43,630 bases of DNA from Shigella phage Buco, in sequence record MK562503; one strand, written 5' to 3'. The notes below the pieces were generated by a model. That model was not told the origin of the DNA and did not search any database. It saw nothing but the letters and a program-made list of their open reading frames with translations. Below are positions 1-25,837 of this stretch, piece after piece; position 1 is the first letter of the stretch; each line of letters starts with the position of its first letter. The translations under genes were made by a program, and so were the position numbers.

Positions 1-127
1 CCCGGGATATCCCGGGTTGACTTATCTGTTTTCGATTAAACACTAAGAAATAATCTCTTGTAGAATAGCTACTTAGAACCACTTGATAAAATACTTGAAA
101 AATAAGTTTGCAATCCCTGTAGTGGGA
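1..127. repeat. Direct terminal repeat, left copy; begins with a perfect 16-bp palindrome cccgggatatcccggg
   Basis: Bases 1..127 are identical to 43504..43630 (read directly from the sequence). The right copy is cut by the window edge, so the true repeat may be longer. Confidence 0.85.
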
Positions 128-293: not shown

Positions 294-851
294 TTGAGTC
301 ACCGGGAGGCAAGAGGTTAGCCAAACGGGATAAGCAGTAAGACGTCGCTACGGAATGGTGACAGGTACACTCTACACTGATCAGCTAAGAGTAAATTGCG
401 GATTGAGAACCTTAACTCAGATAAGGGGCCGATTCCTACGGCACAAGTCACTACACATTTCGCGGTGACGTTAAGGCGCGAGGGCGATTGCGAAGTAAAG
501 CCAAAGAGTCAACGCTTAAAAATTTTCGTAATAAGTGTTGACAGCTACGAAGTGCTAGTCCAGACTGAATGGCAACAAAGCAGTACAGCGAGGTGAGGTG
601 AACCGCAGTACCCACGGGTACAATGACCGGGAATCCAAGATACTAGCTGGTAGTAGCAAGGCCGCCGGGCAGCACATAGTGCGACACGGTAGCGGGGAGG
701 CTGAGACTCTCTCCCCTGAAAGAATAGAGTCGAGGCCAGGACCACTGGCTACCCGGTTGTGCAGGGTGATACAAGGTTAGCTAAATAGTAAATTTAACAT
801 AGCTGGAGCTAACAAAGGCCAGCTAGATTAAATTAACTAGGAGAGCTTAAA

Positions 852-1164: not shown

Positions 1165-1231
1165 CAGCCTACAGCGTCTCACGGGGCGCTGTGTGAAGTT
1201 ATTAATCCAATCCAAAACAAAGAGGTGTATC

Positions 1232-5971: not shown

Positions 5972-6003
5972 GCAGTAACGAGCGACAATTCAACCATAAA
6001 CAA

Positions 6004-6024
6004 AATGAGGTTACACGGTATGGC
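6004..6024 (+). promoter_or_regulatory. Phage-promoter-like motif P1 (aatgagGTTACACGGTATgg)
   Basis: 12 of 14 match to the motif repeated at 21378, 42762 and 13102; overlaps the start of the next ORF, so its function here is uncertain. Confidence 0.35.
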
Positions 6025-6655
6025 AAAGGCAATCACTGTTAAGGTTACTGACAAGACTGATTTTGAAGCACACACTGCGTTGAAGCTCGGAGATATCTTG
6101 GTATTCAATGAGGATGGTGTTTATAAATATCCGAATGGTACCAACGGTACTTACAACGACCCCTGGCTTGAGAAGATGCTGAGCAACGGCTCATTCGCGG
6201 AGGTCCTGAGTGAGCGTAAATTCAGAGATACAGAAGCCCCTGAGTGGGCTACTGCCGTCGGGTGCTTCCAGGGCGGGTGGTACTGGGAGGAGGACATCAA
6301 CCAACGTAATGGGGCGCGCTTCCAGAACATAACAGGGACGAAGGCGTACGAGTACGACAACCACACTGTCAAAGGTTGGGACCAGTACAAAGTCCTGCCG
6401 GCGTTCGTGGAGGAGCAGCTACCGCCGGCACCGACTGCTGTCATGTACCTGAATGACACACCTACTGCCCACAGAGAACTTAAGTTACAAGGGGCCAAGG
6501 GATACCCCGGGCACTTGGTACTGAACGTAGGGGATGGTAAGGGTAACTCTAAGTCAATCGTGCTCAGTCCTGAATCAGCACTGCAACTGGCCCATGACCT
6601 GAATCGCATGGGTATGGCCGGTAAACGTAAACTAAAGGAGCAAGCTAATGGCTAA
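6020..6655 (+). CDS. Early hypothetical protein (211 aa)
   Basis: Second in-frame ATG of ORF 6005..6655, with gagg upstream. Confidence 0.55.
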   Translation: MAKAITVKVTDKTDFEAHTALKLGDILVFNEDGVYKYPNGTNGTYNDPWLEKMLSNGSFAEVLSERKFRDTEAPEWATAVGCFQGGWYWEEDINQRNGARFQNITGTKAYEYDNHTVKGWDQYKVLPAFVEEQLPPAPTAVMYLNDTPTAHRELKLQGAKGYPGHLVLNVGDGKGNSKSIVLSPESALQLAHDLNRMGMAGKRKLKEQANG

Positions 6656-12977: not shown

Positions 12978-13073
12978 ATGAATTCTTTTAAAGTATTTGC
13001 ATTGCGTGTCCAAGTTTACATCCTGGCCGCAGTTTCTATCATTATCTTCATGGCACTGTTGACATACGCTTGA
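12978..13073 (+). CDS. Small hydrophobic peptide (31 aa, single transmembrane segment)
   Basis: ATG preceded by acgaggtg; MNSFKVFALRVQVYILAAVSIIIFMALLTYA; below the track cutoff. Confidence 0.35.
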   Translation: MNSFKVFALRVQVYILAAVSIIIFMALLTYA

Positions 13074-13095
13074 ATCTGTGAAACAGGCCCTAATA

Positions 13096-13115
13096 GAATT
13101 CCACGGTATAGTACG
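13096..13115 (+). promoter_or_regulatory. Phage-promoter-like motif P2 (ttcCACGGTATAGtacgac)
   Basis: Shares the CACGGTATAG core (13102..13111) with P1, P3 and P4; followed by aggaga at 13120..13125 and a TTG start at 13132. Confidence 0.5.
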
Positions 13116-13131
13116 ACACAGGAGAACTACC

Positions 13132-18826: not shown

Positions 18827-18835
18827 TGATATAAT
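18827..18835 (+). promoter_or_regulatory. Extended -10 element (TGaTATAAT) just upstream of the RNAP start
   Basis: Perfect TATAAT at 18830..18835 preceded by TG at 18827..18828; no good -35 hexamer. Confidence 0.25.
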
Positions 18836-18851
18836 GGGAGAATATGCGCCT

Positions 18852-21332
18852 ATGACTAGCGCCCCGCTGTTCACTTATCAGTTCCACGGCACTGACGTTA
18901 CAGAAGCACAGGTACAGCGCCAGGCTCAGCTGGAGCAGGACTACCGCACCCGCGGCCTTGACCGCTCCCGGAGACTGGTACGCGAAGCTATTGAGTCCGG
19001 CAGAGTATCGACGCTACCGGCGGCACAGCGTCTGATTGCTGCCGCTTATGATACGGTAGCGCTCCAGCTGGATCGTATCAAAGCAGAGAAGGCCCCGGGG
19101 GTCGGTGGCCGCTACCGCGCGCTGCTTCGACAGGTGCCGACCACGGTGCTTGCCGCGCTGTCCCTGACTAAGTGCATTGACCTCATGGCGTGTGGGAACG
19201 GGCACAGCACCAACAGCTCTGCGCAGTCGGTTATGTCCGCACTGGGCCGACTGGTGGAATCTGAGCTGCTGAGCATTCAGCTGAAGGCCGTGGCTCCGGC
19301 GTACATGAACAGGGTGCACGAGTATCTGAAAGAGCGCCACACTAAGAACTCGTCGCATATTCTCCAGACCTACCGGGCGTCAGCAGAGAACGTACACTTC
19401 AACCACGAGAACTGGAGCAATGCCCAGTGCATCTCCGTTGGCCGGTTGCTGATGCAGGCAGTATACAGCACTGGCATGTTCCAGTGGCGCAAGGGTTCTG
19501 ATGCTAGCCAGCTTACGTACCTGGAACCCTCTGAGGAGGTGCAGGGGGTGCTAACGGACCTGGTACAGAATGCAGACTCAGTGACATACAAGCCGCCGAT
19601 GCTGGTGCCGCCGCTGGCGCATGAGACAATCTTCTCTGGCGGGTACATTACGGACATTGACCGGCGCGGTACTTACAAGAACACCCAAATAACGCGCAGG
19701 CAGCTCCGTGACGTGGCGAACAGCTTCAAGGAAGCCCAGGGTATTAAAGACGCTCTGAACCGCGCACAGAGCGTCCCATACCGTATAAACAAGGGTATGC
19801 TGGAACTGGTGCGAGAGGCTCAGCGCCTCGGGGTGGCTGTAGGTATGCCCAGCACTAACCCAGCACCGAAGCCGCAGTGGTATCTGGACGGGGTGCCAAA
19901 GGAGACCTACAGTGAGCGCCAGCTTGACGACTTCAATGAGTGGAAGCTCATGATGCGCGAGTGGTACAACGAGGACCGTACCCGTATCAGCCAGCTCCGC
20001 CAAGTGGCCCGTACCCTGCAAATGTCTGAGGAGTTTAAAGATGAGCCAGCCCTGTACTTCCCGACCTGTGTGGACTGGCGATATCGCGTCTACTTCAAAT
20101 CCTCCCTGCATCCCCAGGGTTCTGATTTGCAGAAAGCCCTGCTGTGTTTTGGGCGCGGAAAGGCCCTTGGCGCACGCGGGTTATTCTGGCTTAAGGTACA
20201 CGTCGCTACATGCTTTGGTTATGACAAAGCCTTATTCGAGCAGCGTGCAGCTTGGGCTGATGCAAACTATGCAATCATTGAACAGGTTGCAGATAACCCC
20301 TTTGATTCTGAGTCTTTTAAACTTGCCGATTCGCCGTGGTGTTTCCTTGCGGCATGTATCGACCTGGTTAATGCTACCCGCTCTGGCAGCCCGGAGCAGT
20401 ATGTATCGCACATCCCAGTCGCTATGGACGCTACAAACTCTGGTGGGCAGCACTTCTCCGGAATGCTCCGAGACCCGGTAGGCGGACGCTTAACGAACCT
20501 GTTCTGGGAAGGCAACGAGGAGAAGGCGGACCTGTACATGGACGTGAAGCAGCGTACAGACTCCAAGGTTATCATGGATTTAGCTAATCCAGACTTCGTG
20601 GTACAGGCGCACTACTGGATGGAGAATAGCATCACCCGTACCATGACCAAGCGCCCGAGCATGACCTACTTCTACAGCGCCACGGTGCGCTCCTGTAGCG
20701 ACTACATCGTTACCGGCGCTAAGGGGGAGGGCTATGAGGGCACGGAGGAATACAGTCTCTGGAAGCTGGCAGGTTATCTGGCCCCGCGTATGCGCAACGC
20801 TATCGAGGAGGCCAACCCGGCAGCGGCGGCAGCTATGCATTACTTGCAGCAGGTGGCCCGACGGGTCCCGGTGAAGCTGCATCTGCAATGGAAAACCCCG
20901 TTAGGTGGGCTCGTTATCAATCGTTATACCGAGTCTAAGGAGACCCGTGTCCGCATCGACAGCATGAACCTGACGTCTCTGCTGGCATACAACCGGGACT
21001 ACGAAATTAATAACAGGAAGAAGGCCGCTTCCGGCATCGCTCCGAACTTTGTGCATAGTCTGGATGGTACGCATCTTATGATGGTTATCACTGCATTTAG
21101 CGGCGATATCGTGCCTATTCACGACTCGTTGGCGACACATGCTTGTGACGTTGATGAGATGCACCGGGTAATCCGTGAGCAGTTCGTGAAGCTGTATACC
21201 GAGAACGACCCTCTGCAAACCGTAGCTGATGCAGCAGTAGCAGTAGGCGCTGACCTATCAGGTATCGAAATGCCGGAACATGGCAGACTGGACCTGCGGC
21301 AAGTGCTTGATTCGCCCTTCTTTTTCTGCTAA
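18852..21332 (+). CDS. Single-subunit DNA-dependent RNA polymerase (T7 RNAP-like)
   Basis: About 826 aa; catalytic motifs PVAMDATNSGGQHFSGMLRD and IHDSLATHA. Start taken at the ATG with gggagaa upstream; ORF opens at 18834. Confidence 0.9.
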   Translation: MTSAPLFTYQFHGTDVTEAQVQRQAQLEQDYRTRGLDRSRRLVREAIESGRVSTLPAAQRLIAAAYDTVALQLDRIKAEKAPGVGGRYRALLRQVPTTVLAALSLTKCIDLMACGNGHSTNSSAQSVMSALGRLVESELLSIQLKAVAPAYMNRVHEYLKERHTKNSSHILQTYRASAENVHFNHENWSNAQCISVGRLLMQAVYSTGMFQWRKGSDASQLTYLEPSEEVQGVLTDLVQNADSVTYKPPMLVPPLAHETIFSGGYITDIDRRGTYKNTQITRRQLRDVANSFKEAQGIKDALNRAQSVPYRINKGMLELVREAQRLGVAVGMPSTNPAPKPQWYLDGVPKETYSERQLDDFNEWKLMMREWYNEDRTRISQLRQVARTLQMSEEFKDEPALYFPTCVDWRYRVYFKSSLHPQGSDLQKALLCFGRGKALGARGLFWLKVHVATCFGYDKALFEQRAAWADANYAIIEQVADNPFDSESFKLADSPWCFLAACIDLVNATRSGSPEQYVSHIPVAMDATNSGGQHFSGMLRDPVGGRLTNLFWEGNEEKADLYMDVKQRTDSKVIMDLANPDFVVQAHYWMENSITRTMTKRPSMTYFYSATVRSCSDYIVTGAKGEGYEGTEEYSLWKLAGYLAPRMRNAIEEANPAAAAAMHYLQQVARRVPVKLHLQWKTPLGGLVINRYTESKETRVRIDSMNLTSLLAYNRDYEINNRKKAASGIAPNFVHSLDGTHLMMVITAFSGDIVPIHDSLATHACDVDEMHRVIREQFVKLYTENDPLQTVADAAVAVGADLSGIEMPEHGRLDLRQVLDSPFFFC

Positions 21333-21338
21333 CTAAGT

Positions 21339-21369
21339 GGGTGGTTTTACGACCTAAAATCACCCTTTT
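21339..21369 (+). terminator. Stem-loop plus T4 tract after the RNAP gene
   Basis: gggtggtttta / taaaatcaccc 11-bp stem (one G-U pair), 5-nt loop, then tttt at 21366..21369. Confidence 0.45.
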
Positions 21370-21371
21370 CA

Positions 21372-21395
21372 AATGGTGTTACACGGTATAGTAGG
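21372..21395 (+). promoter_or_regulatory. Phage-promoter-like motif P3 (aatggtGTTACACGGTATAGtag)
   Basis: Core GTTACACGGTATAG at 21378..21391, followed by gggaga and the ATG at 21407. Confidence 0.55.
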
Positions 21396-21406
21396 GAGAA
21401 CCCCCG

Positions 21407-22080: not shown

Positions 22081-23634
22081 ATGCAAGGGCAGCAGAAAGA
22101 ATCACTGGAGTCCCTGTTTACTAAGGACTCGGACCCGACTGTATTAGACGCTGCCGAGCAATTTGCCCAGTGGACACTACCTACAGTGCTCACCCGGGAT
22201 ATCTCCGGAATGGACGGTAAGCGCACCTCCCTGCACCGCGACTATCAGAGTACGGGTGCGGTACTGGTGAACTCGGCATCGACCAAAGTTACTAATGCAC
22301 TGTTCCCACAAGGAGCCCCGTTCTTCCGGTTCGTGGACTCGCCAGACATGGCTGCTGCGGTAGCAGAGCTAGGTATCAATGGCACCGTGCAGTCACAGCA
22401 ATCACAAATTGAGTTATCAGCATCCAGCCTGGTGTTCTCTCGGGATAACTACGCCGCATCTCTCCGTGCCGTGAAATTACTCATGGTGACCGGGAATGCG
22501 TTGGAGTATTTCGACGAGGGCACCGGGCGTTCTCACATTTACAGTGTCCGAGAATACACGGTCCGCCGGGATGGTTCCGGGAATATCCTCCGGGTTGTGC
22601 TCAAAGAGCGCATCGCGGCTATGGACTTACCACAAGAGTTCCGGAGTGCACACCTGGGTCAGAAAGATGACTACGACGACGTAACGCTGTACACTGGTAT
22701 CTGTCTTGAAGATAACAAGTTCAAGATTTACCAGGAGGTGCAGCAGCAGCAGATTGGTGATGCCAGTACCTACCCCATTGACGAGTGCCCGTATACGGTG
22801 CTTGTGTGGAATCTGGTCAACGGAGAGCATTACGGTCGCGGCCTGGTTGAGGATTACGCGGGTGACTTTGCACGCTTGTCTGTGCTGAGCCAGGCCCTGA
22901 CCTTGTACGAGGTTGAGGCTGCGCGGCTGTACAACGCTGTGAGCGCAGGGGCGGGCATTGATGTAGACGCGGCACAGGCTGCTGAGACCGGCGATTATGT
23001 GCAGACCAGCGCAGCGCCGGGAACTAACCCGGGTATCTGGGCGGTTGAGAATGGTTCCGATAGGAAGATTATGTCTCTCCAGAGCGAAATCAGTATGATT
23101 GAGCAAAAGCTGGCGCGCGCATTCATGTACGCCGGGAACACTCGCCAAGGCGAGCGTGTTACAGCTTATGAGATTCGTACTAATGCTCAAGAGGCTCAGA
23201 ACTCTCTTGGAGATGCGTACAGCATCCTGAGTGACCACTGGCTGCGTAAGCGCGCTTATCTGTACACCGTGTACCAGTACCCTCCGATGCGTGCTATGTT
23301 TACACTTGGGGCTACCACCATTCAGATTCTGGTGGGTACAGCCTCGTTGAACAAGGCGGCGCAGGCAGACAGGTTACTGGAAGCGTCACAGAGTATTCAG
23401 CTTGTACTGCCAGTGCTGCAAGGGGCTACGAAGCGCACCAATCCGGACGCGGTCGTAGACTTTATTCTGGATGCATTCGGCGTAGTGAGCAGCAAGCTCA
23501 TGTACACCGAGGAGCAGCTTAAGCAGATTCAGGACCAGCAGGACCAGCAGCAGGCGGACCAGCAACGTAATCTGGAATTGGCACAGGCCAACCCAGAAGT
23601 CGCCGGGCAGCAGCTCGGTTTAATTCCATCATAA
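22081..23634 (+). CDS. Portal (head-tail connector) protein
   Basis: 517 aa; aaggag upstream; first large gene of the structural block, at the position of T7 gp8; Gln-rich C-terminus. Confidence 0.75.
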   Translation: MQGQQKESLESLFTKDSDPTVLDAAEQFAQWTLPTVLTRDISGMDGKRTSLHRDYQSTGAVLVNSASTKVTNALFPQGAPFFRFVDSPDMAAAVAELGINGTVQSQQSQIELSASSLVFSRDNYAASLRAVKLLMVTGNALEYFDEGTGRSHIYSVREYTVRRDGSGNILRVVLKERIAAMDLPQEFRSAHLGQKDDYDDVTLYTGICLEDNKFKIYQEVQQQQIGDASTYPIDECPYTVLVWNLVNGEHYGRGLVEDYAGDFARLSVLSQALTLYEVEAARLYNAVSAGAGIDVDAAQAAETGDYVQTSAAPGTNPGIWAVENGSDRKIMSLQSEISMIEQKLARAFMYAGNTRQGERVTAYEIRTNAQEAQNSLGDAYSILSDHWLRKRAYLYTVYQYPPMRAMFTLGATTIQILVGTASLNKAAQADRLLEASQSIQLVLPVLQGATKRTNPDAVVDFILDAFGVVSSKLMYTEEQLKQIQDQQDQQQADQQRNLELAQANPEVAGQQLGLIPS

Positions 23635-25794: not shown

Positions 25795-25799
25795 ACAGA

Positions 25800-25837
25800 G
25801 GCCCTGTCCATTCGTTTGGGCGGGGCCTTTTTTTTTT
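25800..25837 (+). terminator. Rho-independent terminator downstream of the capsid region
   Basis: 10-bp GC-rich stem (ggccctgtcc / ggacggggcc, two G-U pairs), 8-nt loop, then T10 at 25828..25837. Confidence 0.7.

Follow-up and report, generated by a model that had tools for sequence, protein, structure and literature searches.

Does the short motif directly behind the RNA polymerase (RNAP) gene of Shigella phage Buco serve as the promoter of that polymerase, and if so, how many such elements does the genome carry and what do they transcribe? The question was raised by a sequence-only reading of the window, by which we mean the whole stretch of 43,630 nucleotides that was analysed (record MK562503), in which a four-member family with a 14-nt core had been described and interpreted as the cognate promoter of the encoded single-subunit RNAP. 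The features on which the answer turns are the following.

18834..21332, + strand: single-subunit RNAP gene, 832 aa, T7-type; the putative reader of the motif
21371..21394, + strand: predicted promoter copy behind the RNAP gene, AAATGgtGTTACACGGTATAGTA, with the exact 14-mer; predicted +1 at G 21391
42755..42778, + strand: predicted left-end promoter copy, AAATGaaGTTACACGGTATAGGA, with the exact 14-mer; predicted +1 at G 42775
6003..6026, + strand: copy with TATGG lying over a gene start, 13/14; predicted +1 at G 6023
32873..32891, + strand: intragenic copy, GTGTTACAGGGTATAGTAA, 13/14; predicted +1 at G 32888
13098..13114, + strand: weaker 'middle' copy, ATTCCACGGTATAGTAC, 12/14, without AAATG; predicted +1 at G 13111

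The motif family and its members

A whole-genome motif search recovers the 14-mer GTTACACGGTATAG exactly at 21378..21391 and 42762..42775, with one mismatch at 6010..6023 (TATGG for TATAG) and 32875..32888 (GTTACAGGGTATAG, with ACAGGG), and with two mismatches at 13098..13111 (ATTCCAC...), where the exact core is reduced to the 10 nt of 13102..13111. Expected counts were derived from base composition (iid) and from 300 dinucleotide shuffles. At up to two mismatches 0.23 copies are expected and five are found, all on the + strand; at up to one mismatch there are four, against an expectation of 0.011 (iid) to 0.02 (shuffles). A position weight matrix (PWM) spanning -20 to +3 around the predicted start scores the five sites at 30.9-38.5 bits, while the next-best position on either strand reaches only 5.0 bits, and in a leave-one-out scheme every omitted site is the best hit outside the training set. 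Given this gap and the mismatch counts, the motif family is real and has exactly five members.

Thus, the family described earlier exists well beyond chance, but the count of four overlooked the copy at 32875. The placement of all copies on the + strand extends to this fifth member, whereas the statement that every copy is intergenic or at a gene start does not, since 32875 lies inside the 1279-aa gp16-like ORF 32089..35928. Two other members had been delimited too narrowly: the copy given as 6010..6021 with 12 of 14 matches runs to 6023 and matches at 13, and the one given as a shorter core at 13102..13111 is indeed exact over those 10 nt but matches the full 14-mer at 12 positions. The repeated element itself comprises 21 bases, and its conserved block runs through 21 nt without a break. 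The AAATG extension, seven bases upstream of the core, had been ascribed to the family at large; it is present at three of the five copies (6003..6007, 21371..21375 and 42755..42759) and absent at 13098 and 32875. The motif is non-palindromic and all five copies are oriented with transcription, all long ORFs of the Buco genome being on the + strand.

A scan of IMG/VR with the exact 14-mer matched 82 stretches, among which two copies occur only in Buco's own contig, the others being single chance matches. Rfam holds no family matching the motif, and neither the 14-mer nor Buco promoters were found in any paper of the literature searched. A near-match on the minus strand (19776..19789, TTTATACGGTATGG), which recurs in the relatives L096 and L097, was rejected as a promoter: on the opposite strand these bases are the codons of PYRIN, a conserved RNAP peptide, and the match is hence a coding coincidence.

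A T7-type polymerase and a probable KP34-type promoter

The peptidase encoded in the window is 100% identical to that of Buco, which belongs to the genus Bucovirus within the Slopekvirinae, and the gene order matches that of KP34. The Buco RNAP aligns to T7 RNAP in a single alignment over residues 26-831 (E = 3.7e-67) and is 65% identical to the RNAP of KP34 and 78% identical to that of Cronobacter phage Peggy; the Buco ORF carries a 19-residue N-terminal extension that is missing in the relatives. In KP34, in vitro transcription with purified RNAP together with 5'-RACE defined a strong promoter, T(A/G)ATGTTACAGGAGTA, with the start at the next base, and 5'-RACE mapped transcript 5' ends at the copy behind the RNAP gene (Lu et al., 2019; PMC6834552). 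The strong-promoter copies of KP34 lie at 22197-22212 (S1, directly behind the RNAP gene), at 33721-33736 and at 475-490 (S2) (PMC6834552).

The Buco motif shares with this promoter the TGTTACA core, a G-rich middle, a start at the G that follows ..TA and a purine-rich initial transcript. In a by-eye alignment, which needs a 1-base insertion, about 13 of 18 aligned columns are identical (ACACGGTATA versus ACAGGAGTA). The two differ in the -4/-3 region, which reads TATAG in Buco and AGTAG in KP34, and in the position of AAATG, which lies 3 bases further upstream in Buco. Moreover, KP34 and T7 transcripts begin with GG, whereas the +2 base is T in four of the five Buco copies. Both phages use the same three settings, with copies directly after the RNAP gene, within the gp16 linker and a short way in from the left end. 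The corresponding sites are as follows.

Behind the RNAP gene: Buco 21378; KP34 S1 22197
Left end: Buco 42727..42778; KP34 444..494, containing S2 (blastn alignment)
gp16-like linker: Buco 32875; KP34 33721, the exact strong-promoter sequence
Middle region: Buco 13098; KP34 12983, degenerate copy TAATGTGATACGAGTAGGA

The fifth Buco copy, over a gene start at 6010, has no counterpart in KP34 or Peggy. The KP34 element at 12983..13001 (TAATGTGATACGAGTAGGA) is intergenic before gp22, has 3 mismatches in 19 and is among only four hits in the KP34 genome at up to 4 mismatches. It amounts to a fourth KP34 copy, Lu et al. giving three strong-promoter copies only (PMC6834552).

Because core and settings are shared with a proven KP34 promoter and the two polymerases are 65% identical, we read the motif as the promoter of the Buco RNAP. 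The earlier interpretation as a cognate promoter is thus well supported, by the T7-type RNAP, by homology to KP34, by the shared settings and by conservation in relatives with diverged flanks. Judged from homology, position and conservation, it is very likely that the five + strand copies of (AAATGnn)GTTACACGGTATAG are promoters of Buco's own single-subunit RNAP. The motif is probably a clear relative of the KP34 strong promoter with a distinct specificity. The motif is longer than those of KP34 and the Koutsouroviruses, by 1 base between GTTACA and the start and by about 4 bases when counted from AATG, which leaves both the predicted start site and any function of AAATG tentative.

It could be argued that TATAGT is instead a -10 box and that the motif forms all or part of a host sigma70 promoter. 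TATAGT does resemble TATAAT, and sigma70-like boxes occur near the middle copy (TTGAAT-18-TAGAAT at 13070..13099 and TTTACA-16-TATCAT at 13015..13042). However, a sigma70 scan (-35 and -10 hexamers 16-18 nt apart) calls none of the five motif sites, and no -35 box is shared 16-18 nt upstream of the copies. GTTACA itself cannot be that box, since it stands merely 3 nt from TATAG, and a conserved block running unbroken over its whole length is not what a sigma70 promoter predicts. Together with the KP34 homologue being read by the phage RNAP in vitro (PMC6834552), these points bring the sigma70 reading close to untenable.

Nor does a role other than transcription by the phage RNAP appear attractive. 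The motif might be the operator of a phage regulator, might signal replication or packaging, or might be nicked site-specifically as happens in phiKMV-like phages; nick sites have been weighed as an alternative function for another conserved KP34 motif (Eriksson et al.). The left-end copy does lie near a terminus. In T7, the promoter phiOL is associated with a secondary origin. However, a search of Buco with the phiKMV nick consensus gave no match, and the lack of a palindrome also speaks against such roles. The copies are strictly oriented with transcription, and two of them stand a short leader upstream of a gene start, while the KP34 homologue is a proven promoter (PMC6834552). Replication priming by the left copy would in any case add to a promoter function rather than replace it. 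We consider a site unrelated to the RNAP very improbable and retain the promoter reading.

Two further KP34-related elements deserve mention. The 3' end of the Buco RNAP gene (21286..21305, AGACTGGACCTGCGGCAAGT) corresponds to the KP34 'weak promoter' ACTTTGGACATCCGTCAAGT, with 14 of 20 positions matching, although this likeness may merely reflect the conserved coding sequence for LDxRQV. Buco also carries, at 1166..1197, one exact copy of the hairpin-containing motif AGCCTAnAGCGTCnnACGGGGCGCTnTGTGAA, which was proposed as the 'Kp34likevirus' phage promoter (Eriksson et al., 2015); the KP34 promoter proven later is a different, unrelated sequence.

The copy behind the RNA polymerase gene

The copy at 21378 lies 46 nt past the RNAP stop codon, and the leader from its predicted +1 to the ATG (21407) of the first late gene would be 16 nt, with GGGAGA at 21394..21399 preceding this ATG. 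In closer relatives, which were found by protein searches, contig look-ups and one metagenome pattern scan, the copy behind the RNAP gene (AAATGnnGTTACACGGTATAGTA) keeps its 21 specified bases plus TA invariant, both in L096 (RNAP 90% identical) and in L094 (74% nt). The differences fall solely at the two nn positions, while the flanks have diverged. A hairpin (GGGTGGTTTT..AAAATCACCC, 21339..21365; -13.5 kcal/mol, z = -3.1) followed by TTTTC lies between the RNAP stop and the promoter copy. It is retained in L094 with altered stem bases (-17.6 kcal/mol, z = -4.0) and may be a terminator or stabiliser of a host-RNAP transcript that ends with the RNAP gene.

Downstream, the capsid gene is followed by a second structure.

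25797..25830, + strand: strong hairpin and T-run terminator after the capsid gene, a 14-bp stem followed by T10

With a folding energy of -26.1 kcal/mol (z = -4.5), it occupies the same place as the annotated KP34 terminator at 26623-26660.

The left-end copy and the genome ends

The copy at 42762 had been placed at the right end, from where it would transcribe into the terminal repeat in the manner of the rightmost T7 promoter. This depends on where the physical ends of the genome lie.

42388..42424, + strand: inferred physical left terminus and start of the true terminal repeat; aligns to KP34 1..37 and phiKDA1 1..36
1..127 and 43504..43630, no strand: exact 127-bp repeat, about 1.1 kb from the terminus inferred by homology

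The records of KP34, phiKDA1 and Peggy all start with (C)CCTCACCCT, which corresponds to Buco 42388/9, and in those of KP34 and phiKDA1 direct repeats are annotated both on the left and on the right. The bases just before 42388 in Buco (AAAATTTATTATATTCACGAGAGGCAGT) match the unique sequence that precedes the KP34 right repeat as well as the end of the Peggy record, and the junction at 42388 is nearly invariant in L102-L104. From these record starts and junction matches it follows that the Buco sequence is circularly permuted; the shift would be about 1.1 kb, and the true repeat would be present once. The deposited 127-bp repeat follows a GIY-YIG ORF and is surrounded by early sigma70-like boxes. 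Assemblers commonly have 127 as their largest k-mer, and the repeat is probably an assembly overlap rather than a phage terminal repeat.

With the left end at about 42388, the copy at 42762 becomes the leftmost promoter, like S2 of KP34 and phiOL of T7. It would thus read rightward into the early genes, and the proposal of a right-end copy falls with the permutation. On the T7 map its analogue is not phiOR but phiOL, the leftmost copy, which has the terminal repeat on one side and the host early promoters on the other. The analogy with phiOR rests on arbitrary sequence ends. The copy lies about 375 nt inside the inferred left end, which places its predicted +1 about 388 nt from the end, compared to 491 in KP34. 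It is kept in L104, L102 and L103, where it follows the terminus motif CCTCACCCT by 384-492 nt, and in L102 and L103 the flanks are unrelated and the distance is different.

Three copies had been said to be followed by GGAGA-type ribosome-binding sites (RBS). This holds for two, GGGAGA at 21394..21399 and AGGAGA at 13120..13125, but after the copy at 42762 the corresponding GGAGAGAGG is followed by no start codon or ORF. GGAGAGAGG is thus not an RBS; it looks like a purine-rich initially transcribed sequence, resembling GGAGGG and GGAGAGGGAGAGG after the S2 and intragenic copies of KP34. A 5' hairpin in the transcript from the left promoter was considered as well and dropped, being inconsistent between Buco and L104 by eye.

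Two observations concern the surroundings of this copy. Between the inferred terminus and the left promoter, 42560..42720 contains short imperfect repeats (GTGGCTCTG, GGTGGCTATGG); similar arrays are present in the relatives, and they recall the repeat arrays that adjoin the T7 terminal repeats. Past the left-end promoter, in the leader that extends to the early sigma70-like boxes, lies a 109-aa GIY-YIG ORF (43167..43496; Pfam E = 9.4e-05), found at the same place in L104 and not there in Peggy or KP34. This ORF is probably a mobile insert resembling a homing endonuclease.

The divergent copies

It is less evident that all five copies work. Possibly only the three with AAATG, or only those at 21378 and 42762, are active, with 13098 and 32875 being weak or decayed relics and 6010 being mainly a translation-initiation region derived from a promoter copy. 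The copies at 13098 and 32875 lack AAATG and have mismatches in the core, and in KP34 deletion of the two 5' bases of the 16-nt promoter greatly lowers activity (PMC6834552). The following comparison of the three sites in relatives speaks mostly against this possibility, since each deviant copy is kept there with its own deviations.

The middle copy is intergenic and precedes a metallophosphoesterase gene (TTG 13132), AGGAGA lying just ahead of this TTG. It has orthologues in L096, L101, L099, Peggy and SDFMU_Pec, and its -4/-3 bases follow the main promoter of each lineage: AG in KP34, and TA in Buco, Peggy and the Koutsouroviruses. That the site follows each promoter flavour, KP34 included, is not expected of a relic, although the Koutsourovirus orthologues are variably degenerate. 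We had also considered a GG-versus-G covariation at this site, which is weakened by the degenerate versions in phiKDA1 and KKP 3828, and use the -4/-3 covariation instead. Conservation as such discriminates less here because the whole region is conserved, including a TTGACA box at 13060. Four lineages share this box (13060..13065) unchanged; it stands about 41 nt ahead of TATAGT in the 13098 copy, and no -10 box accompanies it at the distance expected for sigma70. The intergenic stretch leading up to the phosphoesterase gene has, as a whole, the look of a conserved regulatory region, and in the Koutsouroviruses it includes a palindrome (TTGCAGCAG..CTGCTGCAA).

The gp16-like protein is an internal virion protein, and the intragenic copy falls within its variable N-terminal linker, where it encodes V-T-G-Y-S. 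The 17-mer TGTTACAGGGTATAGTA is invariant in L100 amid a diverged, indel-bearing linker, and such invariance within a hypervariable linker again argues against decay, although coding constraint is also acting on the site. Peggy has TTACAGGGTATAGT in its gp16 linker. Relative to the FDPDAPT block, the Buco copy is 51 nt upstream, whereas those of KP34 and Peggy begin about 40-50 nt downstream of the block start. Strict column-level orthology with KP34 and Peggy was therefore rejected, even though the copies share the same variable linker. The listed gp16-like ORF begins 18 codons upstream of the MAQFLN/MAEFLN start used in all relatives (32089..32142), and on this comparison the true start of the gene is probably ATG 32143.

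The copy at 6010 overlaps the GAGG RBS and the ATG (6020) of a KP34-gp12-like gene (6020..6655), so that GAGG-N9-ATG is contained within the motif, which also has G at -1. Its perfect conservation could thus reflect translation signals: the 24-nt AAAATGAGGTTACACGGTATGGCA is invariant in L101, L103 and L104, whose peptidases are 77-80% identical to that of Buco and whose flanks differ, and in L104 the N-terminus downstream of the copy differs too. However, the spacer and AAAATG are invariant as well, which is more than an RBS alone requires. An analogous motif also covers the ATG of an early gene in the Koutsouroviruses. Transcription from 6023 would leave out the ATG of the 6020..6655 gene, and the 6010 copy may not be active. 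Taken together, we consider it less likely than not that the activity is confined to two or three copies, and keep all five as predicted promoters.

Lineage flavours and other promoter systems

Sixteen motif instances yield the consensus cAAATGanGTTACACGGTATAGtA, in which each positional class keeps its own deviations. Peggy has ..GGTATAGG where KP34 has ..GGAGTAG. The Koutsouroviruses (phiKDA1, SDFMU_Pec and KKP 3828) carry GGTTGCACGTATAGA, a motif absent from the papers searched, which shares with Buco the GTTnCACG..TATAG core and its sites following the RNAP gene, at the left end, on the ATG of an early gene and ahead of the phosphoesterase gene; no convincing gp16 copy was found in these phages. 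The Koutsourovirus motif departs from that of Buco at the fourth core base, which is G and not A; it also lacks one G ahead of TATAG and has AGAGG upstream in place of AAATGnn. The polymerases differ accordingly by lineage: where the T7 specificity loop aligns, Buco has RVRIDSMNLTS, KP34 RVRIDCMNLSA, Peggy RVHIMSMNLTA and Koutsourovirus RVKVQSMNLTY, the RVRID of Buco thus contrasting with RVKVQ. These parallel differences in loop and promoter sequences fit a co-evolution of polymerase and promoter, short of proof. The RNAP-based search of IMG/VR returned no relative above 62% identity, and the metagenome scan with a pattern of 19 specified bases gave three hits, of which L094 is a true relative. 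L093 and L095 were rejected as relatives, since they show no protein-level similarity to Buco and fit the chance expectation.

The promoters of T7 are, like those of Buco, short, multi-copy and oriented on a single strand, are read by a single-subunit RNAP, and have TATAG with +1 G and an A/T-rich upstream part. The T7 consensus is TAATACGACTCACTATAGGGAGA, with 17 copies in T7 versus five in Buco. However, the sequence from -5 to -12 is unrelated, and the homology of the polymerases is distant. Compared with the T7 group (T7, T3, SP6 and K11), which is defined by a 23-bp consensus with a -8..+1 core of the CACTATAG type, the Buco motif has only TATAG in common, and its core ACACGGTATAG has two extra bases relative to ACACTATAG of SP6. 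The Buco motif is therefore a functional analogue, not a member, of the T7-group promoters. The phage-specific promoters of LUZ19 and phiKMV (GgtTATGTCACacACAnnGG), with an antisense copy in the early region of LUZ19 (PMC10914365), are also unrelated in sequence. Long-range transcription from few promoters is common to them and Buco, in which, however, all copies are on the sense strand.

A bolder proposal is that the Buco polymerase and promoter are orthogonal to those of KP34, with a core-to-start distance one base longer and a T7-like TATAG that bridges the KP34 type and the T7/SP6 type, and that 6003..6026 is a conserved dual-use element combining promoter, RBS and start codon. We regard this proposal as tentative, its chances being somewhat short of even.

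A proposed transcription map

By analogy with T7 and KP34, the polymerase would bind the upstream part of the motif as duplex, with the specificity loop contacting GTTACAC and the N-terminal recognition loop contacting the A/T-rich AAATG. It would then melt the TATA segment and start transcription at the G of TATAG, that is at the predicted positions 42775, 6023, 13111, 21391 and 32888. The leftmost promoter (42762), just inside the left terminal repeat, would read the GIY-YIG ORF and the early region, re-transcribing the early and middle regions once polymerase has been made, and the copies at 6010 and 13098 would reinforce the replication genes. The copy at 21378 would act as the main late promoter driving the head genes, in a unit bounded or attenuated by the terminator at 25797..25830, while 32875, within the gp16-like gene, would boost transcription of the tail, terminase and lysis genes. 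A layout with few promoters has been demonstrated for KP34 and also emerges from mapping of transcription start sites in LUZ19, where one promoter follows the RNAP gene and another lies within the structural region (Putzeys et al., 2024; PMC10914365). The Buco copies would similarly set up a few transcription units, organised as in phiKMV/KP34. Polymerase binding, start sites, the relative strengths of the copies and the activity of the two divergent ones are all inferred from such analogies.

The predicted Buco promoter is a known kind of element that is undescribed for Buco in the papers searched, and it leaves the understanding of these phages unchanged. What Buco and its Bucovirus-like metagenomic relatives gain is a transcription map with five predicted starts and one terminator, along with a corrected genome orientation in which the deposited ends are not the physical ends. 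The KP34 promoter class, which is experimentally anchored, is extended to a second and a third flavour, those of Bucovirus and Koutsourovirus, and such polymerase/promoter pairs could be orthogonal reagents for in vitro transcription.
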